Shown here piece after piece: positions 14,025 to 48,830 of a stretch of 64,000 bases of DNA (position 1 is its first letter; every line of letters begins with the position of its first letter). The translations under genes were made by a program, and so were the position numbers. The notes under the pieces are model-generated. The model did not search any database and was not told the origin of the DNA. It saw only the letters and a list, made by a program, of their open reading frames with translations. This stretch comes from Synergistaceae bacterium (GTDB taxonomy: Bacteria > Synergistota > Synergistia > Synergistales > Aminobacteriaceae): positions 32,852 through 96,851 of the forward strand of contig WRHH01000004.1 in the NCBI GenBank assembly GCA_009783355.1, given 5' to 3'.

Positions 14025-14075
14025 CCCATGAACTAAAGTTCACCACGATGAATGAAATTTGGGAACCTCTTGGTA

Positions 14076-14176
14076 AAGACTACTGGATTACCATGAAAGT
14101 AATCAAAAGGCAAAAACTAAAAGACAACTGAATTGCCGCGCCGCAAAAAGACGCGGCTCGCAAAGACGTTAATTAG
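14076..14176. repeat. Structured intergenic repeat element, copy A (81-bp core about 95% identical to 48710..48790)
   Basis: aagactactggattaccatgaaagtaatcaaaaggcaaaaactaaaagacaactgaattgccgcgccgcaaaaagacgcgg. Contains hairpins gattac/gtaatc and gccgc/gcggc. A related direct repeat ctggattatcacgaaagtaataaaaag lies at 14337. Confidence 0.7.
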
Positions 14177-23078: not shown

Positions 23079-23198
23079 GGGGCTGTAACAAAAGCTGGCG
23101 GCAGAATGCCGTCCCTACAACATATTGTGCTCACAATACCAAACAACCACTATATATTGTGGTTTGGCTAGCCAATATACTACTTTTGTTACAGCCCC
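23079..23198. mobile_element. MITE-like element copy 1 (16-bp perfect TIR GGGGCTGTAACAAAAG)
   Basis: Left end ggggctgtaacaaaag, right end cttttgttacagcccc. An internal hairpin ggcggcagaatgccg and the whole element recur, reverse-complemented, at 48479..48618. Confidence 0.75.
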
Positions 23199-23439
23199 TT
23201 TTCAAAGATAGTTTGAGATGAGCTTATTAATCTTGCGGAAGAAGATATTTCAGATGATGAAATCCGGGAAGAAATTGGTATAATATTTGATATGGCAACA
23301 CATGCGAGTTTATGGCGTTTCAAAAATCAAGCGCTAAGCTTTGTATCATGAAATTCATTTAAACCTGAATCAATGTAAAGAGATTTGTACAATAAAGTTA
23401 TAACGGCTCTAAAAAATTGTCAATGGAGATGATGTATCA

Positions 23440-28137: not shown

Positions 28138-28210
28138 AACTGTTTTGATATTGGGGTGCGGGTTATGGTTTTCGTACCAAATATAATGCAAGCGCAATAA
28201 AGACACTTTA

Positions 28211-28240
28211 GGGGCGGTTCGTTTATAGCCGCCCTTTTCT
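28211..28240 (+). terminator. Putative rho-independent terminator after dnaK
   Basis: gggcgg...ccgccc stem followed by TTTTCT. Confidence 0.4.
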
Positions 28241-28464
28241 ATTTGCTTTTTGGCTCGTCGCTTTGTCGTAAATTATGCCCGTTAATCGAACATGGTTGTG
28301 ATGTATTAACGCAGAATTGACAAAGCAGGATGTGTTACAGTAGAATCGTCAACAGCAAACGATTAAGTGGATTCATGCAACGCGGCTAATTTATCAAACC
28401 TGTTTAGCAAGCAGGAAAAAATGTGGCGCCGACCCGAATGGTGACGTAACATTACTTATGAGCT

Positions 28465-28725
28465 TTGTTCTGGATATATTTCAAAGGTTATGGGAAAGGT
28501 AGGTTAAAAAGTTTGAAACAGAATTTCACTGTTTTGATTGAGCAAGGCGAAGATGGCGCTTACGTTGCGACTGTTCCTGCGTTGAAGAGTTGTTATACAC
28601 AAGCTGATACAGTATCGGAACTACTTGAAAAGGTACATGAAGTAATTGAATTATGCTTGGAAGAAAATGAAGCTCAAGCTTATACCAAGTTTATCGGTGT
28701 TCAGCAAGTGGAAGTCACAGTATGA
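28465..28725 (+). CDS. hicB: HicB-family (UPF0150) antitoxin, orphan
   Basis: FTVLIEQGEDGAYVATVPALKSCYTQADTVSELLEKVHEVIELCLEE matches the HicB/UPF0150 consensus. No hicA could be read upstream. Confidence 0.6.
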   Translation: MFWIYFKGYGKGRLKSLKQNFTVLIEQGEDGAYVATVPALKSCYTQADTVSELLEKVHEVIELCLEENEAQAYTKFIGVQQVEVTV

Positions 28726-28730
28726 GCCAA

Positions 28731-28960
28731 CTAAAAATCATTACAAGTATACAAATGTGCAAGCTGTTGGAGGTTGTAAGACCACCAAATAACCTTTTTT
28801 CGACGCGACAAATTTTTTCGCTTCAATGCCTTATCAATATCCACGCCGCCTAACGCGTTCATCATTGCCTTAAGCTCATACGCTATCGCATCTGCTTCAG
28901 CTTTGCTGTTTTCAGCGGCAAGAGCCGTCAAAATCTTTCTTTAGCTTCCAGTTTTTGCTA
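28731..28960 (-). pseudogene. Deletion-derivative remnant of the flotillin/NAD-kinase-like operon
   Basis: 28771..28830 matches 30559..30617 (3' end of the NADK-like gene). 28834..28956 matches 31633..31757 (flotillin C-terminal coding). The fused ORF reads LTALVAENSKAEADA...ALGGVDID. Confidence 0.75.
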
Positions 28961-29031
28961 AATTTGCTCCCATCTGGAACGCATGTTCACAATCTGTTGG
29001 GAATTGTTCCTTTTTCTGTCTTGCTTTGTTG

Positions 29032-30318
29032 TTACCACGGTAAAGGGATTATTTCAAAAGCATTTGCAACAGGGCCGACCGGCATGACCACCCTTCTTCT
29101 CACCGAGATAGCGCCTTCCTCTTTATTAAAGTAGCTCGCCGGGTAGAACCTGTCATCTGACGATGTGCTTCCACTATGATCAGGTTTCCCGGCCGGATAA
29201 TAGGTTATATCCTCAATAACGGAATCGTCAATGCTCTGCCACTGTCCCTGCCTTTTGGGCGTAAGCTGCTCCCTCTCCGTGTAGCCGGGGATGTTCGCGT
29301 TCCAATACGTGAACATACAATTGGTGAAATAGAGGCTGCCGTCGGATTCGCGCCAGTTGCCCGCCTTAAGCGTCATAAGCGAAGCCATGGACATGGAGCC
29401 AACACGGGTATATGTGACCCGCACTTCCTTAAAAGTGCCGTCGTCCTTGAATTCAAAATATATGTCGCCGCCGCCGGCAAGTCCATATTCGCCAATCACA
29501 TGAATCGTGCCGCCCCAAATACCGAAATATTTTTGTTCCTCTGCGGTAGTTGTTCTTGTGGTCAGCGGCTTTACAGGTTTCGGCGGCGGGGGCGCGGCCT
29601 GTTTTTCATGCGCCAAAGGAATATGAACAAAAGCGTTTGCAACAGCCCCGGTCGGCATGACCACCCTTCTTTCGAGGCTGAATGAACCGTTCTCACCATT
29701 GACGTAGCTTGCCGGGTATATACGGTCATATTCACTTTTGGTTCCCGATTTAGTGGGGGCGGACTCTCCGGCGGGGCAGTAAAAAGCGTCCAATATTACG
29801 ACATCGTCCTCGCTTTGCCACTGCAATATGGTCATTGGCGTGATTTGTTCCGCTGCTTCCACGTAACCGGGGTTAAACGTATTCCAGGACGTGGTCATAC
29901 GGTTGGTTAAATAAAGGTTACCGTTGGATAAATGCCAGCTGCCCGCCGCAAAAGTCATTAAGTTGGCATGATACGATAACGGCCTCTCTGACAGTTCCCG
30001 CCGGACGATGCCGACCAATACCTCCTTGAACGTGCCGTCGTCCTTGAGCTCATAATATATTTCCCCTATACCGCTCAGTTCGTCGGGATATCGGTCTATG
30101 TATCTGTAATAGTCCGTGTATCCACGGACGATGCCGCCCCAAATACCGACGTATTTTTGTTCTTCTGCGGCAATCGTTCTTGCAGTCGGCGGTTCGGTCG
30201 CTCCCGGGCTTCCTGCCCTCTGCGGCGCCTGCGCGTCCTGCGCAATGGCGGCGACCGCCGTGGCTGCGAAGATACCAGATGAGATTATTAGCGCGAGGGT
30301 CAAGATTTTCTTTTTCAT
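29032..30318 (-). CDS. Secreted protein made of two tandem homologous domains of about 190 aa each (unknown function)
   Basis: Signal peptide MKKKILTLALIISSGIFAATAVAAIA. Repeats begin TTAEEQKY(V/F)GIWGG and end RRVVMP(T/V)G(A/P)VANAF. Confidence 0.6.
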   Translation of the reverse strand: MKKKILTLALIISSGIFAATAVAAIAQDAQAPQRAGSPGATEPPTARTIAAEEQKYVGIWGGIVRGYTDYYRYIDRYPDELSGIGEIYYELKDDGTFKEVLVGIVRRELSERPLSYHANLMTFAAGSWHLSNGNLYLTNRMTTSWNTFNPGYVEAAEQITPMTILQWQSEDDVVILDAFYCPAGESAPTKSGTKSEYDRIYPASYVNGENGSFSLERRVVMPTGAVANAFVHIPLAHEKQAAPPPPKPVKPLTTRTTTAEEQKYFGIWGGTIHVIGEYGLAGGGDIYFEFKDDGTFKEVRVTYTRVGSMSMASLMTLKAGNWRESDGSLYFTNCMFTYWNANIPGYTEREQLTPKRQGQWQSIDDSVIEDITYYPAGKPDHSGSTSSDDRFYPASYFNKEEGAISVRRRVVMPVGPVANAFEIIPLPW

Positions 30319-30563
30319 TAGATGTGATTTCCTCTCTGTATTGATCTTTCCATTTTATATCATAAACACGCAGATGGGCGTACTGCTGTTGTTCCTATGC
30401 ATGCGTCAGGTATAGATAGAACGCTGATAAGAAAAATTCTGAAAATTATGATATGTCTATTGACGACTATAACAACAGAGTATAAACATTTTCTGTGGAG
30501 TAGTAAATATCTTTCGTAATCGGATCCGAATTCATGTTGGAAATTCTGCTGTATTCGTGGTTG

Positions 30564-31496
30564 TCAGACCACTAAATAGCCTTTTTTCGACGCGACAGAT
30601 ATTTTCGCTTCAATACCTGAATTGAATCGTAAAAAATCATGCTCAATTCCATCGCTGAAAATTACCCCGCCTTCCGGCATCTGCGAAATCACCAATAATG
30701 GAGAGTTGGTAATTGTCCCAAAAACAATACCTGCGCCTGTGGTATTGCTGTGGAAAGGTTCGCGTACCGAGTAATATAGAAACTCGCTGTCCCATTCGGG
30801 GAAAGTAATGCTAGAGTTTATGATTTTGCCGGTAATAACTCCGGCTATTCTGCTGGCGCCTGCAATTACGCTTTTTAACCAGCCGGTTGAACCAAGCCCC
30901 GTGGAAACAATAATTCCGCTAGATGATTGATTCTCCTCCTGTCCGTTGATTTTAATTTTGTATCTTGCCGAAACATGGGTTTGCCTTCCGATAAAAAAGT
31001 CGTTAACGGCCAATAAGCTTTGCCCATCATTCAGTTCGGCTATTGCCATTGAAATTTCTTTTTTTTGCCTGCGATTACCTAGCACTTCCCGAACAACGAC
31101 GGGCACATCAGCACAGCGAAAAGGGAGCAGCACACCGTCATATCTGGCAGGATCGGGGTTTATGGCAATAAGCGGCTGACCATTCAGGTATTTCAGCGTG
31201 TTTGCTACTAAGCCGTCCTGACCGATGACAACGACTATGTCATCTTCACTGAACATGAAATTGGGCGCGTATTCTCTATCGATTAATTGAACCCGAGCCA
31301 AATTTTTCAAGTGGTTAATTGAAGCGAAAACCGATTCTTTATAAATCCTGTCCTCTTCAACATACTCCTTGATATCTCCGCCCATTTTTTCCACATAAAA
31401 GGCTGCTTGAGCCATATTATTGAACTTTTTTACCAATTCATCCGCGCGAGTTGACCTTGTTATGACGACGATTTTGCGTTCGGGTACATAACTCAT
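30564..31496 (-). CDS. ATP-NAD kinase-fold protein (COG3199-like)
   Basis: VVVIGQDGLVAN (GGDGT-like), NDG, and SSGIIVSTGLGSTGW (the DGlivSTPtGSTAY equivalent). Start overlaps the flotillin stop (ATGA). Confidence 0.55.
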   Translation of the reverse strand: MSYVPERKIVVITRSTRADELVKKFNNMAQAAFYVEKMGGDIKEYVEEDRIYKESVFASINHLKNLARVQLIDREYAPNFMFSEDDIVVVIGQDGLVANTLKYLNGQPLIAINPDPARYDGVLLPFRCADVPVVVREVLGNRRQKKEISMAIAELNDGQSLLAVNDFFIGRQTHVSARYKIKINGQEENQSSSGIIVSTGLGSTGWLKSVIAGASRIAGVITGKIINSSITFPEWDSEFLYYSVREPFHSNTTGAGIVFGTITNSPLLVISQMPEGGVIFSDGIEHDFLRFNSGIEAKISVASKKGYLVV

Positions 31497-32509
31497 GGCG
31501 TCATCATTTCACGAATCAAATCGGGGGTGATATTCAATTGGCCGATTCTTTCCGCTTTACCCGCCAGATTCTGGAACGCATTTGCTATTAGAGTTTGCGG
31601 CTGCATGCCAATCACAGTCAATGCTTTGATGACGTCAATATCCACGCCGCCTAACGCGTTCATCATTGCCTTAAGCTCATACGCTTTAGCGTCTGCTTCA
31701 GCTTTGCTGTTTTCAGCGACAAGCGCCGTCAAAATCTTTCTTTTTTCTTCCAGTTTGATTTCCGCATCAAGCTGCTCATTTTTCAATTCATTTTGCCTTC
31801 TCATTTCAGCTTGTTCGGCATTGAGCTTAGTCTCGCGAACCTGCCAGCGTTTGTTTTCAACGGCGATTTCCGTATTGTACTCGTTTTCCTTGACGCCGCG
31901 CTCTTGTTCAATGGAGGCGTTTCTACGTTCATAAATAGCGTCGTCGGCCATTTTTAAGATTTTTTCTCTGGTTTCCGCCTCTAGTGCCCTTGAGGTTTCT
32001 TTGTTTGGTAGAACTGACAGAACCGTCAAACCCATGATCTCGATACCCAGCAATTGAATTTCTTCATTTCGCCGCAAGTCTTCAAGAATGCTCTTTGCTA
32101 GAGTTTCACTGGAGCGGATGGCGTCAGAAAGTTTTAAACCCTCCAAATGCTTTTTTGCCATGACGCGAACCAGATTACTTATTCTTACGGGAAGCTTTTC
32201 CGGGTCGTCGGATATGTAACTCTTTTTCCAACCTCTGACATCCAGTGTGAAATTAAGGAGTTTGATTAAATTTTTGTTATCTACTATACGATATGTGACC
32301 TGGCCTTGAATGGAAACCGACTGAAAATCCGCTGTGGCTTCTTCGAACATGAAAGGACAGTCGTCGCTCGCAATAGGCGCCACGACAATTGATGTGGTGG
32401 GAGCGTAGTAAAAAAAGGAAATTCCCGCGCCTTCTTTCACTACATGACCGTTTTTGAATTTAAGAACGTACTCGTTTGGTTGAAATTTGACGTAATGAAG
32501 CCCGAACAT
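31493..32509 (-). CDS. SPFH/band-7 flotillin-like protein (YqiK-like)
   Basis: SPFH domain N-terminus, and a long Glu/Ala/Lys-rich coiled-coil with a flotillin C-terminal pattern. Confidence 0.7.
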   Translation of the reverse strand: MFGLHYVKFQPNEYVLKFKNGHVVKEGAGISFFYYAPTTSIVVAPIASDDCPFMFEEATADFQSVSIQGQVTYRIVDNKNLIKLLNFTLDVRGWKKSYISDDPEKLPVRISNLVRVMAKKHLEGLKLSDAIRSSETLAKSILEDLRRNEEIQLLGIEIMGLTVLSVLPNKETSRALEAETREKILKMADDAIYERRNASIEQERGVKENEYNTEIAVENKRWQVRETKLNAEQAEMRRQNELKNEQLDAEIKLEEKRKILTALVAENSKAEADAKAYELKAMMNALGGVDIDVIKALTVIGMQPQTLIANAFQNLAGKAERIGQLNITPDLIREMMTP

Positions 32510-32531: not shown

Positions 32532-33251
32532 TTATTTTTTTGTGTATAACTTTGCCGGACGATGCCCTTTGTCGCTCGTATACTTATCAGTTTCCTGAAC
32601 AAGGCCAATAATCTTAAGCCGAAAATTAGCCGTTGGAACCTTTTTCCAAAGAATCGCTTCATATGCGTTTTGAAGCTGAGTCAAAGTGAACTCGAGAGGT
32701 AATAAATGGAAAATTACGTTGCTGTATAGGATTTTAGACTGCAGTCGCCCTAAAGCCATTTTTACGATACCGAAGTGATCAAAACCAAAATCCGGTTCGG
32801 TTATTATGAGCTCCTTGTTCTGGAATACCGGTCTCCGGTCTGATGTATTCTGCACCGTAAACCATACCGCATCGCTTTGATATTTTTTTGACTCTTCTTC
32901 GTTCATAAGGCCTAAATATGATATGGAAATCACTCTTGCGCGCGGATCCCTGTCTAAATCGCAAAATGTGTAAAGTTGTTCTAAATAGCACCGGTCAACA
33001 TGTGACTTCTCGGAAATTTTTCTGCATATATTGTCGCTTGGCATCTCGTCAATATTCAAAAAACCTCCCGGCAAACACCACCTGTCCCGATACGGTTCAA
33101 CCGGTCGCTTGTACAACAGAACCCTTAAATAGGTATCCGGCAGCTTCCTATAACTGTCCGCTTCCTGTGTCTTTATGGTAAAAACAACTGCGTCGGTGCA
33201 AACAAAAGGGTGTTCATAATTATATATACTGCCCACTATCCACGCCTCCAT
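32532..33251 (-). CDS. nrtR: NrtR-family regulator (Nudix-like domain plus C-terminal winged helix)
   Basis: Nudix-like CLPGGFLNIDE. C-terminal FTLTQLQNAYEAILWKKVPTANFRLKIIGL...RPAKLY is typical of the NrtR wHTH. Confidence 0.65.
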   Translation of the reverse strand: MEAWIVGSIYNYEHPFVCTDAVVFTIKTQEADSYRKLPDTYLRVLLYKRPVEPYRDRWCLPGGFLNIDEMPSDNICRKISEKSHVDRCYLEQLYTFCDLDRDPRARVISISYLGLMNEEESKKYQSDAVWFTVQNTSDRRPVFQNKELIITEPDFGFDHFGIVKMALGRLQSKILYSNVIFHLLPLEFTLTQLQNAYEAILWKKVPTANFRLKIIGLVQETDKYTSDKGHRPAKLYTKK

Positions 33252-34271: not shown

Positions 34272-34420
34272 AAAATAATATGTGGGACGGTAATCCCATA
34301 ACACTTGAACAAGGCGGCATTGACAGGATTTTCAATACCGTCAATCTGTTTAACAAAGATAACGCGCATATTTTTCGGCGGCAAAGCAACAACGCGAATA
34401 GATGGAGGGTATTATATTTG
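34272..34420 (+). pseudogene. Duplicated 3' fragment of the phzF-like gene
   Basis: About 145 bp, roughly 90% identical to 36228..36365. Encodes MWDGNPITLEQGGIDRIFNTVNLF. Confidence 0.7.
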
Positions 34421-35112: not shown

Positions 35113-35483
35113 ACATCAATGGCAAAGGAAATGGCGATGAGTGAGTGGGATAAAAAGTAGCTATGGAAATGATTGCTGTTAATCTGTTTTCGTTGGTCGG
35201 GATTTTAAGAAGCTGTTTTTCCGTTTGCATTGCATCCAACTCACACATGAAGATGATGTGTTGCGGCTTTGGTTATGGGTAATGAATATATCCCCCTTGA
35301 ACACCTCTCGAAATCATGATTCTTGCGGCGAAGTCGATTCCTCCTTCACAACCGCTAAACTTATAACCCAAAGGTTTCAATATTCTAATTATGCTGTTTA
35401 TCTGCGGGGAGTGGACAGCATTTTCAAGCCTTGCGATATTGTTGTATTATAGTATTGGCATGTATTTGGGGGAGAGTGATTTT

Positions 35484-36365
35484 ATGAAAAAATATGATTA
35501 CAAAAAAGTTGACGCTTTTACTTCCAATAACTCGTTAGGAAATCCTGCGGCTTGCGTTTATTTAAACGAAGGACAGTCATTGGCTGAGGATGAAATGCTA
35601 AGCATCGCGAAACAGCATAAAGGTTTTGTTTCGGAAGTTGTTTACTGCACAAATAATGGCAGTTGCGGTTTTGACTTGGCGTATTATTCATCGGAATGCG
35701 AAGTCCCGTTTTGCGGCCATGGCACAATTGCATGTATGTATTCGTTGATAAAAGATTCTCCTGAATTGTTGAAACAGTCGGAGATAATTATTCATACCCG
35801 AACCAAAGGAAGCCTCATAATTTACAATAAAATAACTGAACAGGACGCAGTTTACATTTCAGCGCCCGAGCCGGTATATTCATCTGTTCCTATATCTTTA
35901 GAAGCTATTATTGATTGCTTAAGCGTGGATATATCGGCGATTTCAGACGCTTATCCTGTTGATTTTATCGACGCGGGAAACAGAACTCTAATCATACCGA
36001 TAAGAGGCTTGGAAGACGAAATAAACATCTTCCCGAATGAGCAAACCTTAAAAGAATTCTCGTTGAATAACGGCATAGACGTTATTTTGATTTTCTGCAC
36101 AGAAGTAATGGACGAAGCGCATTTTGCGCATACGAGGGTGTTCGCGGCGAAATACGGCTATCTTGAAGACCCCGCTACAGGCTCTGCAAATAGCGCTTTC
36201 GGCTATTATCTTCTGAAAAATAATATGTGGGACGGCAATCCCATAACACTTGAACAAGGCGGCATTGACAGGATTTTCAATACCGTTAATCTGTTTCACA
36301 AAGATAATAGAATATTTTTCGGCGGCAAAGCGACAACGCGAATAGAAGGGGTTTATTATATTTAA
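35484..36365 (+). CDS. PhzF-family isomerase-like protein
   Basis: KVDAFTSNNSLGNPAACVYL, FCGHGTIA. Start at MKKYDYK, with a GGGGGAGAG RBS. Confidence 0.75.
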   Translation: MKKYDYKKVDAFTSNNSLGNPAACVYLNEGQSLAEDEMLSIAKQHKGFVSEVVYCTNNGSCGFDLAYYSSECEVPFCGHGTIACMYSLIKDSPELLKQSEIIIHTRTKGSLIIYNKITEQDAVYISAPEPVYSSVPISLEAIIDCLSVDISAISDAYPVDFIDAGNRTLIIPIRGLEDEINIFPNEQTLKEFSLNNGIDVILIFCTEVMDEAHFAHTRVFAAKYGYLEDPATGSANSAFGYYLLKNNMWDGNPITLEQGGIDRIFNTVNLFHKDNRIFFGGKATTRIEGVYYI

Positions 36366-36457: not shown

Positions 36458-37456
36458 TTAGTTTATCATACTTTGTATTTGTTCCACGGGCAAACCTGTA
36501 CTCTTAGTGATTATTTCCAGTGGTATTCCATTAAAAAGAAGATTCCTTGCCACTTCTTCTTTACCTTTTACAAAGCCTTTTTCCATGCCTTTTTCCATGC
36601 CTTTTTCCATGCCTTTTTCCATGCCGCGCTCTTCAGCCATTCTTTCTTCCACTTGTTTAAGAAAAGGCTCATACATAAGCTTTCCCTCCTTATTCAGTTG
36701 TTGGCAGTATTCCCAATATTGTTTCTGCAACATTTCATCTTTCAGATTTAATATACGTATTATAAAAAGTACAAGGTCGCGTTTCTCGTTCTTGTCCCAG
36801 CTCCGTTCAGCGAGAAGTTCCGTCAACGTTCGCAGGTATTTAAACTTCTGAATCTCCTCTTTTGTTTTCTGCGCACACATTGCAGCGTAAAGGGCTAGGT
36901 CTATCGGGTTGTCGCTTATTCGTAACTCGTCGTCGTTGAGTTCCATCAAAACGAGATTATTATACCTGTAAACAATTTCCGTGCCAAAATTGGAATGAGA
37001 ATAAAACCGCTCATCTTTTCTATGACCGCTTGTAATGATAGCCAGAGCCACTGGATTTTTCCTGTAATGCGCATATATCAGACAACAGTAATGAAACATT
37101 CTCTCGGCAAGATTGCCTCCACCAGAACCTTGTTGAGCCTCACAATGGAGGAGTATCCACTTATCATTCCCGTTTTTCAATGGCACTTCAAGTATGAGAT
37201 CGGCAAAATGCGGGCTCGTATGAATTGACGGGTCTCCCGTATTCAGGATGTCACGAAATTCCTTATCGAGAAGCCGGTGAGACCGGTTCGTATCAACTGC
37301 ATTGTAAAGCTCCGGGAGCGCCCTTTTAAGCAAATAGTAAATGAAACGGTCTATTAAATCCTTCCAATAACTATCGTAATCGAAATATTCCTGCTTTTCG
37401 GAGCCGTTATAATATGCCCCCGTATTCGCTATATCTGTGATGTTCTCTGCCGTCAT
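36458..37456 (-). CDS. Rpn-family (YhgA-like) PD-(D/E)XK recombination-promoting nuclease/putative transposase
   Basis: N-terminal PD-(D/E)XK core. C-terminal DUF4351-like tail with (GMEK)x4 encoded by a 12-nt tandem repeat at 36576..36625, and ARNLLFNGIPLEIITKSTGLPVEQIQ. Confidence 0.65.
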   Translation of the reverse strand: MTAENITDIANTGAYYNGSEKQEYFDYDSYWKDLIDRFIYYLLKRALPELYNAVDTNRSHRLLDKEFRDILNTGDPSIHTSPHFADLILEVPLKNGNDKWILLHCEAQQGSGGGNLAERMFHYCCLIYAHYRKNPVALAIITSGHRKDERFYSHSNFGTEIVYRYNNLVLMELNDDELRISDNPIDLALYAAMCAQKTKEEIQKFKYLRTLTELLAERSWDKNEKRDLVLFIIRILNLKDEMLQKQYWEYCQQLNKEGKLMYEPFLKQVEERMAEERGMEKGMEKGMEKGMEKGFVKGKEEVARNLLFNGIPLEIITKSTGLPVEQIQSMIN

Positions 37457-37512
37457 AAGCTTTCACCTCTGAATGAACCATTATAACACGTTTCTTCTAA
37501 AAACACCGGAAT

Positions 37513-37582
37513 ATCACTGAACAGGACGCAGTTTACATTTCAGCGGCAAAGCGACAACGCGATTAGGGGGGTATTATTATTG
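37513..37582 (+). pseudogene. Internally deleted remnant of the phzF-like gene
   Basis: 37515..37544 matches 35838..35867, then joins directly to a match of 36322..36360. Confidence 0.6.
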
Positions 37583-37843: not shown

Positions 37844-38704
37844 TCATGATCCATTTTCAGCTTCAGTACCCCCACGCTGTATGAAATCAATTAGCTTTTT
37901 CGTAATGATATAAGGTAAAGCAGGTTTATCTATCTCCTTGATAACCTTTAAATATAAATCAGAGTCAATTGAATGTCCCAGTTTTTTTGCTGATTCCTTT
38001 AAGCGTTTTAGTTCATAATTTACTATTTTGTTAGTAATTTCGCGCTGTCTGCCTAGATGCAGCTTGTTTTGACTCATAATTAGTTCGTCGCGCATGACAT
38101 CGAAAAGAAATTTGTCGCGGTTTAGCCAATCTGCTAATATCTGCTCGTAATTGGTTATAATTAAGCTCTTTGTCATGTTATCTGATGCTACTGCGCATTG
38201 TAAGGCTGCATATATATAATTCACACATTCATCCACACCAGAACAAATATTTCTAATATATGACCCCCATTTATTCGATTGAAGCTGCGGAATACTGAAG
38301 AAAAACTCGTCTTGATCCATTTTAAAAAAATCGTGAACATCTGTCAGTATTTTCCTATTTTTGGAAAAAACATCAGCATTGACATTATGGCAATAAACAT
38401 ATCGTAAAGCATTTATCTTTTTAACATACTCTTCAACATAATCCATCTTTTGGTCGTTCAGGGAACCTTTATTATTCAGCATATTAAGTAATTTTTTTAT
38501 ATTAGGCATACAGTCAAAAAACAATCCATAGATATTAGTCACGGCGCACCAAAACAGTCCTTCGTCATTGCTACACTGATGTGCTTTTGGCGCGTAATAG
38601 GCAGCGAAAAAAAGACGCGGTGATAAATGGGATGCCATATATATATTTATTTCTTCAATTTTGCGTGTTGTAAATGCAACCCCATCTATGTAATTATCAC
38701 TCAT
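37844..38704 (-). CDS. Hypothetical 286-aa protein translationally coupled to the SIR2/NTPase gene
   Basis: Start ATG overlaps the upstream stop by 8 bp. No recognisable motif. AT-rich codon usage. Confidence 0.6.
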   Translation of the reverse strand: MSDNYIDGVAFTTRKIEEINIYMASHLSPRLFFAAYYAPKAHQCSNDEGLFWCAVTNIYGLFFDCMPNIKKLLNMLNNKGSLNDQKMDYVEEYVKKINALRYVYCHNVNADVFSKNRKILTDVHDFFKMDQDEFFFSIPQLQSNKWGSYIRNICSGVDECVNYIYAALQCAVASDNMTKSLIITNYEQILADWLNRDKFLFDVMRDELIMSQNKLHLGRQREITNKIVNYELKRLKESAKKLGHSIDSDLYLKVIKEIDKPALPYIITKKLIDFIQRGGTEAENGS

Positions 38705-41700
38705 TCGCTTGACCGTCTTTCGGAGTCAGCCCACGGAAAGCGGCAAGTCCCATGTAACCTAATCCAAGCTGAAAATCGTCGCATGACACACCACTTTTTA
38801 TTTCAATTCCTTTTATATTCCATTTGCGAAAATAAATATCCCTACCACCGTTATTATCTCTACTTATTCTTCCAATGCGGACATAATTACCGCTTAGAAC
38901 ATTATCTGGTGTGTTTTGGTTAAAATTACCGCTGAATTCTAAAGGCTTTCCTTTTTCGTCGCAAAGAATATGTTTTGTGCGGATACGATCATTGCCCCGT
39001 TGCTCAACTAATTCGGTACAATTGCGTATTTTGTTGATTGTTTGCCCGTAAGCACTGTATTGTTCTAGATGTAGGTTCGCTAATGCCATGACATAAAAGA
39101 ACAACAGCGTTTTTGGCGTGCAATCTTGATTTCCGCAAAAATCACGGCATACACCGAGTATATCTTTCCATTGGTCGTTTGTCATCGCAGTAAACTGTTC
39201 TTCAGCTGTAAAAATCGGCGTTTTATTATATGCAATCCATTTTAGTTTTAACCGTTGCCTCTGGCAGATATGATCTTTTATTGTTATTACAGCATATTCA
39301 TTCTCGTCATAATATTTCGCGCATATTTCACGGCATCTTAAAGCTTGGTCATTGTTGAATGCTTCAATTCGGTTTTCATACTCTCTTTGGCGTTTAGTAA
39401 TTCCAGCAGTCTCCATTTCTCTGGCCACTTTCAAATAGACAGCATATGGATTTCCATCAATAATGAGGCTATTAATATATTCATCACTTAAGGAAGAATC
39501 TATCTTTCTATAAATCCCTTCGGCAGGATTAATAAAATTCGAATCTTGTGCAACATAAACATACTCATCCTGAGTCTTTCGTATCAAATTATCAGCGGAA
39601 GCAAGCAATTCAACTGTTTTGGCCTGCGGCAATTTGTCGCAAAATTTCAAGGTAAGCCATAATTTAGTGCTGATAATATACCCGTTATCCGGTGCGTAGC
39701 CAAGCTGCTCGTCTAAATCCTTACTAAGTTCCATATATTCTCGTTCATCATATTTGTTTTCATACTCCATCAGATTTATGCAACAGTTTACCCTTTCAAC
39801 CACCAAGCTTGTAAGTAGACGTGACGAAATTTGTCCATGTCTCTTTTCAATTTGGATGGCTTCGTTGCAAATTATAACAGCATCACGTAACATTTTCTGT
39901 TTGTTGTCGTTTATGTGTCTATTCTCACTTTCTAGCATTTTTATATACTCGCGGATGTATGACGCCTCTTGCACCACGAGTGGCGATAATAGTGATCCTT
40001 GCTCTCGTGATTCGCGTAACGCATCAATTATCTTTTCATATTCCTCGGATGTCAAACGCTGAAAATCCTTGGAGTTTGGACCTATCCTAATCAACAACTT
40101 TACAATTAAGTTCACCTCGGTTTTATCATTGTAATTCAGGGTCATTATAATATTCACAATCTGGTTAACTTCTTCAGACTCAATTATCTTTTGTGACCGT
40201 AAATAAATCATTGCTTCGCCACGGGTTCTGAACCGTACAGCGTAATCGGAAAACTCATATTCGTCATATGTCAGATAAATCATGGATGAAAGCACTTCCT
40301 TTACCCGGTGATCATATAGATTTATCAGACGCAGTATAAGCGAAAAAGGCATGAAGAGGTCATATTTTGTGCATATGGCCGTGTTTACTAGTGCTTTCTT
40401 AATGTTATTAATAATTTTATCTTCGTCGTTATTTGTTTGCCCTTTTTCGTTTGTAATAAATCCTGAATTTTTTAAGGCTATTTTTATCTGGCTTGTTTCG
40501 TATTTTTCAGCAATAAGCTTTTCGACAAAATCTTTACTAGAATATTGAATTACATTCTCAATATAATTGCCCATACCTTTTTCAATCCCAAGTCGCGTGT
40601 CTGTGAGTGAGGTGTATAGGAACAGCATGAAATTATTACGCAATTCTTCTGATTTTTTAAGTTGTTCAATTACTTTGTCAATATACACCTGTTCCCATCG
40701 CGCTTTGCGACTAAGAATCTGCTTGAGATGGTTGATTTCAAGAGAATCATCACCCATATTCAATGATTTATTTGTTTCAAGGAACTGAAAATAGGTTTTT
40801 TTTACACTTTTTGTGATTTGTTGCGTCATATGCTCATCTATGCTTTCGTATTTGTCTGCGTTTTCATATGCAGTAAAAACAAATTGGACATTACGCGCGC
40901 GGGTATGCTTTATGTAGTTACATAAACTCCTGCATTTTAGCATGTCGCTGGTAAAAGCCGACAAATCCCAAATGACAAGTGAACACTTAGCTCCAATTTT
41001 TTCAAGCTGGTGTAAAACATTATCTAAGACATTCATTTCACCATCAGCATTCTCAATCCTTCCGCTTGGAGACATCATAACTTCGCGATGAAAATCTATG
41101 TCCTTTTTGTTTATAAAGATAACAGGGTATTCTTTTTCGTAAAAAACGCGGTATGCTAAGTAAGCAACTGCAACACTTTTACCACTACTTGGTTCTCCTT
41201 TAAGACATATCGGATAGTTATCTTGCTTTTTTTCTTCAGTACCGGGATTCTTTAGACCTTTATTCACTCGTTTGAACAATTCTTCATCGTGAGCTCGCAC
41301 TAAATTAAACTTATTCTTGTAACCGTACCATGCTGGGGAAGTGGTGCTCTCCTTTAAAAAACTGGAAAATTCTGTTTCTATGTATTGTGGAAGTACTATG
41401 CGCCTGTTAATTTCTTCTTCAGTCAGCAATGTTGCAAATTCATTGAAGCGCACCAAATCCTTTTTATCTATAAAGCAAGCTTTGCCAGCTACGTACACTT
41501 TTGTTTTGTCGCTTTCGTAATGAAGGCTATAGGAATTGTCATACTCGTCATTGACTGAGTCATCGGGTACGGTAAATTCTTCGCTTAAGCATAGTATTGG
41601 GGTGGGATCTTCGTTCTCCATGTCTCGTTCGGGTAATATTTCTTTTACTAGTATATCTTTGACACCAAAAAAGATAACAGAGCTGTCACGTTTTACACTA

Positions 41701-42152
41701 TAGAGGAAGTCTTGCATTTCGCTTGTAATAAATGCATCGTTTTCGGAATAGCCTACAAAGATGAAACTACCGCCATTCTTTAGCCTGTCATCAAGAACTC
41801 TTTCTAAAGCTTTTCGGGCTGTCTTTTGGTCGCGTTGAGATGGTTTTGCTCTTGATACTGATTCAATTTCCGGTGTTCCGAAAAGATAGCATATTTTTAG
41901 GTTTCGTTGCTTAGGAAAGCACGGATCGTCGATGGACACCAATCTCACTTGTCTGTATGAAGGAAGGGCTTTTGTTACGGCGTTACACAACGCCAAATCT
42001 CGTTGCGAAGTTATAATGAGCCACCATTTCTGCTTGAGGATGCGCAAGTTTTCTTCATTTGCTAAGTCAAAACTCTCGCCGACAAACAACACGTGCGGTT
42101 CTGAATCTAAGTTGTCCAGAATTCTACTGGAAATATCCTTTACGTTTTGCAT
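38697..42152 (-). CDS. 1151-aa protein with an N-terminal SIR2-like domain, a central P-loop NTPase and a C-terminal helical region (candidate antiphage defence NTPase, SIR2-STAND-like)
   Basis: N-terminus HVLFVGESFD...LIITSQRD...IFVGYSENDAFI (SIR2_2-like). Walker A GEPSSGKS near residue 320, and hhhhD Walker B LVIWDLSAF. The remaining roughly 700 aa are helical. Confidence 0.65.
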   Translation of the reverse strand: MQNVKDISSRILDNLDSEPHVLFVGESFDLANEENLRILKQKWWLIITSQRDLALCNAVTKALPSYRQVRLVSIDDPCFPKQRNLKICYLFGTPEIESVSRAKPSQRDQKTARKALERVLDDRLKNGGSFIFVGYSENDAFITSEMQDFLYSVKRDSSVIFFGVKDILVKEILPERDMENEDPTPILCLSEEFTVPDDSVNDEYDNSYSLHYESDKTKVYVAGKACFIDKKDLVRFNEFATLLTEEEINRRIVLPQYIETEFSSFLKESTTSPAWYGYKNKFNLVRAHDEELFKRVNKGLKNPGTEEKKQDNYPICLKGEPSSGKSVAVAYLAYRVFYEKEYPVIFINKKDIDFHREVMMSPSGRIENADGEMNVLDNVLHQLEKIGAKCSLVIWDLSAFTSDMLKCRSLCNYIKHTRARNVQFVFTAYENADKYESIDEHMTQQITKSVKKTYFQFLETNKSLNMGDDSLEINHLKQILSRKARWEQVYIDKVIEQLKKSEELRNNFMLFLYTSLTDTRLGIEKGMGNYIENVIQYSSKDFVEKLIAEKYETSQIKIALKNSGFITNEKGQTNNDEDKIINNIKKALVNTAICTKYDLFMPFSLILRLINLYDHRVKEVLSSMIYLTYDEYEFSDYAVRFRTRGEAMIYLRSQKIIESEEVNQIVNIIMTLNYNDKTEVNLIVKLLIRIGPNSKDFQRLTSEEYEKIIDALRESREQGSLLSPLVVQEASYIREYIKMLESENRHINDNKQKMLRDAVIICNEAIQIEKRHGQISSRLLTSLVVERVNCCINLMEYENKYDEREYMELSKDLDEQLGYAPDNGYIISTKLWLTLKFCDKLPQAKTVELLASADNLIRKTQDEYVYVAQDSNFINPAEGIYRKIDSSLSDEYINSLIIDGNPYAVYLKVAREMETAGITKRQREYENRIEAFNNDQALRCREICAKYYDENEYAVITIKDHICQRQRLKLKWIAYNKTPIFTAEEQFTAMTNDQWKDILGVCRDFCGNQDCTPKTLLFFYVMALANLHLEQYSAYGQTINKIRNCTELVEQRGNDRIRTKHILCDEKGKPLEFSGNFNQNTPDNVLSGNYVRIGRISRDNNGGRDIYFRKWNIKGIEIKSGVSCDDFQLGLGYMGLAAFRGLTPKDGQANE

Positions 42153-48709: not shown

Positions 48710-48830
48710 AAAGACTCTGGATTACCATGAAAGTAATCAAAAGGCAAAAACTAAAAGACCACTGGATTGCCGCGCCGCAAAAAGACGCGGGCGTAAAGAG
48801 CGGCTTCGCCGAGGCGCAAAGACGATTAGG
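48710..48830. repeat. Structured intergenic repeat element, copy B
   Basis: 81-bp core with 4 mismatches against 14076..14156, followed by a related cgcaaagacg(a)ttagg segment. Confidence 0.7.

Follow-up and report, generated by a model that had tools for sequence, protein, structure and literature searches.

We analyzed a 64,000-nucleotide (nt) stretch of the genome of an uncultured Synergistaceae bacterium, probably from a termite-gut sample (contig WRHH01000004.1 of assembly GCA_009783355.1, positions 32,852 to 96,851; hereafter the window, in whose numbering all positions are given) and focused on two neighboring features: a gene for a predicted secreted protein of 428 amino acids (aa), here called X, and a short stretch to the left of it, here called the remnant, in which the ends of two genes from a nearby operon recur fused to each other. 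Both lie in a low-GC, accessory island extending from the dnaK terminator at 28.2 kb to the liv transporter at 43.4 kb, which also holds HicAB, an MNT/HepT pair, PhzF, an Rpn-family nuclease and an 1151-aa protein with weak SIR2 and STAND matches. The antitoxin gene hicB and a truncated hicA precede the remnant, and the operon that supplied the two gene ends follows X on the right. This operon consists of genes for an NrtR-like regulator, an SPFH/Band-7 (flotillin-like) protein and an NADK-like protein; X is co-directional with and behind the three genes, with no predicted terminator between. The coordinates of all features are collected in Table 1.

Table 1. Features of the X locus and of the surrounding island, in window coordinates.
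Feature	Position	Strand	Description
hicB (antitoxin)	28513..28725	+	70 aa from TTG 28513, reading frame open from 28465; intact, not duplicated; Pfam HicB_lk_antitox E = 8.8e-8
hicA stump	28722..28771	+	first ~16 codons (MSQLKIITSIQMCKLLE); truncated by a 245-nt deletion, junction 28771|28772
NADK-like 3' end, left copy	28772..28832	-	5 nt downstream plus last ~18 codons; 88-90% to 30554/9-30619, outgroup comparison
SPFH/flotillin-like C-terminal segment, copy	28834..28955	-	corresponds to 31635-31757; 93.4%, E = 9e-46
Spacer downstream of X	28956..29031	-	76 nt; travels with X; L001 fully diverges at its outer edge, 28955
Gene X	29032..30318	-	428 aa; Sec-type signal peptide (by eye); two ~190-aa internal repeats; GC 52%
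Upstream region of X	30319..30361	-	ribosome-binding site GAGAGGA and TGnTATAAA-like extended -10 (by eye); abuts right repeat copy
hicA 3' part, right copy	30362..30485	+	codons ~33-73, no 5' part; frameshift by 1-nt deletion, pseudogene fragment
Spacer between convergent hicA and NADK-like genes, right copy	30486..30563		by alignment to L039/L041
NADK-like ("sugar kinase") gene	30564..31496	-	310 aa, intact; last 56 nt inside right repeat copy
SPFH/Band-7 (flotillin-like) gene	31493..32509	-	338 aa, intact; Pfam Band_7 E = 2.9e-14; source of the 122-nt fragment (31635-31757)
NrtR-like Nudix and winged-helix regulator	32532..33251	-	first gene of the array NrtR-SPFH-NADK-like-X; Pfam NrtR_WHD 2.1e-17, NUDIX 4e-5
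phzF remnant 1	34272-34419		148-nt copy of phzF 3' end, 92%; directly after PNPOx stop, upstream of MNT/HepT
phzF	35391..36365		source gene of two remnants
Rpn-family protein	36458..37456	-	332 aa; NCBIfam TIGR01784 57.3 bits (cut-off 52.1); GMEK x4 tetrapeptide repeat
phzF remnant 2	37510-37581		internal 36 nt (35829-35864) fused to last ~42 nt (36319-36360); beside the Rpn-family gene
286-aa gene	37844..38704	-	no matches; overlaps the 1151-aa gene; low-GC
1151-aa protein	38697..42152	-	SIR2_2 E = 0.013, nSTAND NTPase E = 0.011, both weak; low-GC

The remnant is composed of two pieces. The first copies the 3' end of the NADK-like gene: a repeat search aligned 28767-28831 with 30554-30618 (65 nt, 88%), local alignment set the bounds at 28763/7-28832 and 30548/54-30619, and self-BLAST of the whole window returned 60 nt at 90% (E = 6e-16). 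The second copies the segment encoding the C-terminal part of the SPFH protein; the repeat search aligned 28834-28942 with 31635-31743 at 95%, and local alignment extended this match to 28834-28955 against 31635-31757 (122 nt, 93.4%, one 1-nt gap), with a self-BLAST E-value of 9e-46. Both copies keep the orientation of the nearby intact source genes, and no more than 2 nt of filler separate them at 28832-28834. In sequence, the remnant corresponds to the ends of the operon minus positions 30620-31634 (1015 nt). A first-pass annotation of this DNA had reported these alignments, compared the remnant to the operon with about 1 kb of its middle deleted, and placed the secreted-protein gene between the remnant and the intact operon. 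Its coordinates were accurate to within a few bases by repeat search, local alignment and self-BLAST, all of which recovered both matches in the self-comparison that it had proposed as a dot-plot; the missing middle amounts to the 1015 nt absent at the fusion, and the gene is bracketed as described. A more sensitive self-comparison of 28-43.4 kb detected no further remnants.

Comparison with related strains, which the annotation had also proposed, revealed the same fused remnant beside X in two independent metagenome assemblies from separate samples, L039 (JGI 3300002505) and L041 (ENA ERZ27257320). Positions 1-603 of L041 are identical to window 28169-28771; 245 extra nt follow, and then window 28772-29913 at 98%. 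L039 has the same structure, with 245 nt more than the window at the left edge. With the extra 245 nt, hicA in both strains is a full gene of 73 codons (554-775 in L041) and overlaps the stop of hicB. The product of L041 hicA matches Pfam HicA_toxin (E = 6.4e-16) with a single in-frame TAA, present in both strains, read as Q. The exact 70-aa HicB product of the window is also encoded on L041, so that the L041 version has the adjacent, overlapping HicB and HicA domains of a HicAB system; the window keeps a hicA stump and a displaced 3' fragment.

The completed sequence of L039 and L041 also revealed the full extent of the duplication. A 258-nt block in these strains, comprising the 3' part of hicA, the spacer between the convergent genes and the 3' end of the NADK-like gene, is 89.5% identical to window 30362-30618. 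This direct repeat covers the facing ends of two convergent genes and brackets a 1529-nt block (28833-30361) that contains the SPFH fragment, the 76-nt spacer, X, which is its only long open reading frame (ORF), and 43 nt upstream of X. It measures 258 nt in L041-type strains and survives as 65 nt in the window; the left copy is short there because the window strain lost 245 nt of hicA. The gap between the NADK-like gene and X is likewise not plain intergenic sequence, since 30362-30563 consists of a frameshifted copy of hicA and the spacer. The right hicA fragment still gives a weak HicA_toxin match (E = 0.014, profile positions 25-54). For annotation, this means that the "intergenic" DNA flanking X is made of dead pieces of the hicA, NADK-like and SPFH genes. 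Within the right copy, GGATCCGAATTC at 30523-30534 combines adjacent BamHI and EcoRI sites and was considered as a vector trace; this was rejected, and the motif taken as native chance sequence, because the corresponding left copy in L041 reads GGACCCGAATTC.

The toxin gene itself was inactivated twice independently with hicB intact, by the in-frame TAA in L039 and L041 (two samples) and by the 245-nt deletion in the window, which leaves hicB as an orphan antitoxin gene in the window strain. An intact hicB beside an inactivated hicA resembles other degenerating type II toxin-antitoxin loci of the HicAB type; here the degeneration is a bystander of the rearrangement and not its cause.

The strain comparison also bears on whether the structure is an artifact of assembly. 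The window is a metagenome-assembled contig, and the allele with the 245-nt deletion (junction 28771|28772) was seen only in the window record, a look-up of the product of a 66-aa ORF across the remnant giving no second record; both points would fit a misassembled or chimeric contig in a metagenome-assembled genome (MAG). Against this, two assemblies made independently from different samples both contain the fused remnant beside X, and a collapsed repeat would not leave copies 6-12% apart. We therefore regard misassembly as extremely unlikely. A Logan unitig (L003) ends exactly within the two repeated stretches.

A further strain contig, L001 (sample ERZ27257320), matches the window at 99.45% identity over 12.5 kb. 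Its allele shows ~10% divergence only from the middle of X (the C-terminal domain) through the spacer, 28955-29600, and the contig then diverges totally at exactly 28955, 14 nt before its end, showing a different left junction whose sequence is known up to ATTCTAACATTATC. A search with the 14-nt divergent tail in the window and all loci gave no informative match. X alleles are mosaic among near-identical strains, over 28955-29600 in the comparison with L001 and over 29400-29900 in that with L041. A diversity-generating mechanism for the variation of X was considered and rejected; the L001 differences extend into non-coding DNA, the spacer, and have the appearance of allele exchange. Together, the variants L041, L039 and L001 represent successive stages of decay.

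We then compared each copy with its intact source. The remnant is 93% and 90% identical to the intact genes of its own lineage; against the nearest other lineage, L043, it reaches 81% and 86%. Differences between the copies were polarized with L043 and L004 as outgroups, which assigned at least 9 derived changes to the remnant, including a frameshift and a lost stop, and 2-4 to the intact copy, for example Ala to Val in the SPFH protein and TTG to TTA in the NADK-like gene. In the remnant, the stop codon of the NADK-like piece has changed from TGA to TTA and the piece is out of frame with the fused SPFH fragment, which in turn carries a 1-nt deletion that shifts its frame into a stop. This distribution of derived changes fits a duplication within the lineage followed by neutral decay; the copies originate from the lineage's own operon. 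Strains differ from each other by 0.03-2% and the repeat copies are 6-10% apart, so that the duplication is old relative to the sampled strains. Identity to nearby genes, disabling lesions together with an excess of derived changes, and recurrence in independent assemblies are the features of a duplication scar.

Survival of the remnant through ~6-10% divergence could also point to a retained function, either as the source of a small protein or as an RNA that might, for instance, be antisense to hicA or serve X as terminator or insulator. The 66-aa ORF (28731..28931, minus strand) is open across the remnant, and the gene caller called an equivalent ORF of 83 aa on L041. This ORF, a frame-fused chimera built from the ends of two genes, starts with TTG, gives no Pfam match and has another length in L041, and its exact product has no other record. 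At the RNA level, neither strand of the remnant is more structured than shuffled sequence (z = -0.6 and +0.3), Rfam matched only a tRNA in the whole window and nothing at the remnant, and there is no terminator-like site in or beside it. A functional element is thus very unlikely, and on these sequence features the remnant is best regarded as non-functional DNA, a dead leftover of the duplication.

X is rare. Among 5.8e9 proteins only 4 homologs were found, one of them identical (MCL1875057.1, from a Synergistaceae MAG), and X has no family match in Pfam, NCBIfam or PADLOC. An AlphaFold model built from the five-sequence alignment reached a predicted local distance difference test (pLDDT) score of 33 and was unusable. 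Homologs elsewhere (L036-L040, L042) occur in unrelated neighborhoods with similarity restricted to the coding region, which identifies X as the piece that moved. A candidate extended -10-like sequence, TGATATAAA, read by eye, is located at the joint. No recombinase or transposase family was matched in the bracketed block (Pfam, NCBIfam and PADLOC), and no transposase gene lies within 28767-30619, the nearest being the Rpn-family "putative transposase" 6 kb away. The best match between the ends of the block as terminal inverted repeats is 8 nt, a length also reached in shuffled sequence (6.5 +/- 1.1, maximum 12.5). In the absence of a recombinase, a transposase or significant terminal inverted repeats, the block cannot move itself. 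It lacks the inverted repeats and transposase of an insertion sequence, a transposon or a miniature inverted-repeat transposable element (MITE), and the 258-nt repeat is far above the size of a target-site duplication (2-14 bp).

Based on this anatomy, we favor the view that the remnant is probably the scar of a local duplication that accompanied the insertion of X, by duplicative insertion or by template switching, and that has since decayed. The order and mechanism of the joining events we infer as follows. In the ancestral locus, hicB-hicA would have pointed rightward and NADK-like-SPFH-NrtR leftward, with the 3' ends facing each other across ~80 nt. A 1.4-kb piece containing X, its upstream region and the 76-nt downstream spacer would then have entered by replication-associated illegitimate recombination, so that its promoter side came to adjoin hicA at codon ~33 and its opposite side SPFH position 31757. 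Joins at these two points would leave everything between them on both sides of X. Since a plain tandem duplication cannot put X at the junction, either an insertion at the joint or serial template switching is needed. By the first route, X would have been inserted at the joint of a tandem duplication, and a 1015-nt deletion would later have removed the redundant body of the NADK-like gene; by the second, a single template-switch run would have passed from the 3' end of the NADK-like gene to the 122-nt SPFH stretch, then to foreign X DNA and back to hicA. Later decay would account for the frameshifted SPFH fragment, the lost NADK-like stop, the frameshifted right hicA copy, and the nonsense codon (L039/L041) or 245-nt deletion (window) in hicA itself. 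The first-pass annotation had proposed either a tandem duplication followed by deletion or a duplicative insertion of the secreted-protein gene plus hicB. Duplication and deletion do form part of the present reading; the extent proposed was too small, the hicA repeat was overlooked, and hicB does not belong to the unit, as it is the 3' part of hicA and not hicB that is duplicated. The locus would thus be a natural example of single-gene insertion without mobile-element genes, and a rearrangement scar of an ordinary kind.

Similar scars have been described in other systems. Microhomology-mediated break-induced replication (MMBIR) and fork stalling and template switching (FoSTeS) are template-switch models for complex rearrangements, proposed for human copy-number variation (PMC2621351), and tandem duplications with microhomology borders are known from bacteria (PMC11111574). 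The X locus shares with such junction scars that direct repeats of flanking DNA surround a novel joint, that the joint includes a short stretch templated ~1 kb away (the 122 nt of SPFH), that duplication, deletion and insertion are combined, and that the redundant copy decays. It differs from them in that a foreign gene stands at the joint, the mechanism is read from the anatomy, and the one assessable junction has no evident microhomology.

Direct repeats around X, both derived from the same lineage, could also have arisen in several steps, by a larger tandem duplication of X together with the operon that independent deletions trimmed to the 65-nt and 122-nt pieces and a single X. Deletions do occur locally, as shown by the 245 nt lost in the window strain and the ~460 nt missing from a phzF derivative. 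Such a history requires one duplication and at least three precisely placed deletions, and the second copy of X must have vanished without a trace: the NrtR-SPFH gap is 22 nt, and no X-related sequence occurs elsewhere in 28-43 kb of the window. We consider this multi-step origin possible but unlikely.

Alternatively, the block may have been imported from a ~90%-identical strain and integrated through the 258-nt homology, in which case the 6-10% divergence between the copies would be the distance between donor and recipient. A circular fragment could have entered by a single crossover of the Campbell type, or homology-facilitated illegitimate recombination could have acted during transformation. 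In natural transformation of Acinetobacter baylyi, homology-facilitated or double illegitimate recombination integrates foreign DNA without mobility genes, and recipient sequence is sometimes lost or gained; the X locus is similar in having no mobility genes, and here no donor was identified. X alleles are visibly swapped between strains, as in the ~10% difference of L001 over 28955-29600 only, and the SPFH/NADK-like module, which plasmids also carry, is a mobile unit across phyla. The arrangement further resembles the borders of integrative elements (attL/attR, insertion at a 3' end): the 3' end of a target gene lies within the direct repeat, with the intact gene on one side, an orphan 3' fragment on the other and cargo between. 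It differs from them in lacking an integrase, excisionase or other mobility gene or site-specific recombinase, in having a repeat that extends over the ends of two convergent genes, in its additional, non-contiguous SPFH piece, and in its cargo, a single 1.3-kb gene. A donor would, moreover, already need the odd fused SPFH/NADK-like junction; the derived and partly disabling changes are concentrated in the remnant, as expected of decay in place; and no sequence of 83%-100% identity was found in the databases searched. Import from a diverged strain is, in our view, distinctly unlikely.

Several observations weigh against the preferred reading, a duplication accompanying the insertion of X. Exact look-ups of X, the NADK-like protein, SPFH, HicB and DnaK, homolog searches and locus scans yielded no empty-site allele, in which hicBA would directly face the NADK-like gene with X absent; all contigs that encode the identical NADK-like protein and reach that far carry X, and the next NADK-like homolog, 83% identical, stands in a different context. 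No donor locus for X was found, microhomology could be assessed at one of three junctions only, and that junction (28832-28834) has no clear microhomology. The composition of X is core-like (GC 52%, GC at third codon positions 59%, as in dnaK and the liv genes), and the hicB, NADK-like, SPFH and NrtR genes are low in GC (39-44%) with their closest relatives in Firmicutes (70-78%), so that it may be the operon that arrived and X that was already there. Beyond the spacer, L001 carries a different sequence. Finally, a single event and a multi-step history are indistinguishable from these data.

The operon that supplied the two fragments was characterized further. The Band_7 match of the SPFH protein scores 54 bits against a gathering score of 23.6, and the NrtR-like protein scores 107 bits against the NCBIfam NtrR repressor model, under its cut-off of 400. 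The first-pass annotation had spoken of an NADK-like gene and a flotillin/NADK operon. Database names for relatives of this gene are "sugar kinase" or "NAD kinase", and a distant superfamily resemblance to NAD kinase (NadK/PpnK) does exist; the best score against the NCBIfam NAD-kinase models is 33.7 bits, with cut-offs of 211-493 bits, and Pfam gives no match. Judged by these scores, the protein is only a distant superfamily relative of NAD kinase. The genes for SPFH and the NADK-like "sugar kinase" overlap, and the pair is conserved: it recurs in Firmicutes, Verrucomicrobia and Proteobacteria, and plasmids carry it as well. Here and on the Rhizobium plasmid NZ_CP104154.1 (L045) the pair has a Nudix/NrtR-type neighbor, which is missing beside it in L043, where the operon is located between tatD and tgt. 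In PADLOC, the SPFH/NADK-like module had no match except a weak one for SPFH.

The island contains two more scars of a similar kind, both derived from phzF. In all three copies of phzF, homology stops at the phzF stop codon, and the junction of the second remnant has a 7/8-nt microhomology (TTTCAGCG/TTTCGGCG). Three similar scars thus lie within 10 kb, each an orphan fragment of a neighboring gene's 3' end next to an inserted accessory gene; two are internal-deletion derivatives, and this island seems to owe its form to recurrent illegitimate insertion and to deletion mediated by microhomology. It is a doubtful proposition that all three are footprints of one RecA-independent, nuclease- or template-switch-driven route of single-gene insertion that works without mobile-element machinery and duplicates the ends of target genes. 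Rpn-family nucleases promote RecA-independent recombination in E. coli (PMC5350276), and a causal role of the Rpn-family nuclease in these scars is speculation. Rpn proteins are also known for variable four-amino-acid repeats and intragenic antitoxins (PMC10400941). If the pattern were recurrent genome-wide, it could hint at how accessory genes enter the variable islands of uncultured gut bacteria. Further along the island, the overlapping genes for the 1151-aa and 286-aa proteins may form a defense gene pair.

Outside the island, two intergenic repeats were observed in the window. A 133-nt repeat at 48468-48600 matches 23079-23208 in inverted orientation at 86%; it has no Rfam match, is bounded by terminal inverted repeats (GGCTGTAACAAAAG...CTTTTGTTACAGCC), and is MITE-like or a structured element. 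The second, of 92 nt with no Rfam match at the gathering threshold, pairs 48710-48799 with 14075-14166 at 93%; it lies upstream of a plus-strand gene both times and may be a shared leader or regulatory region.

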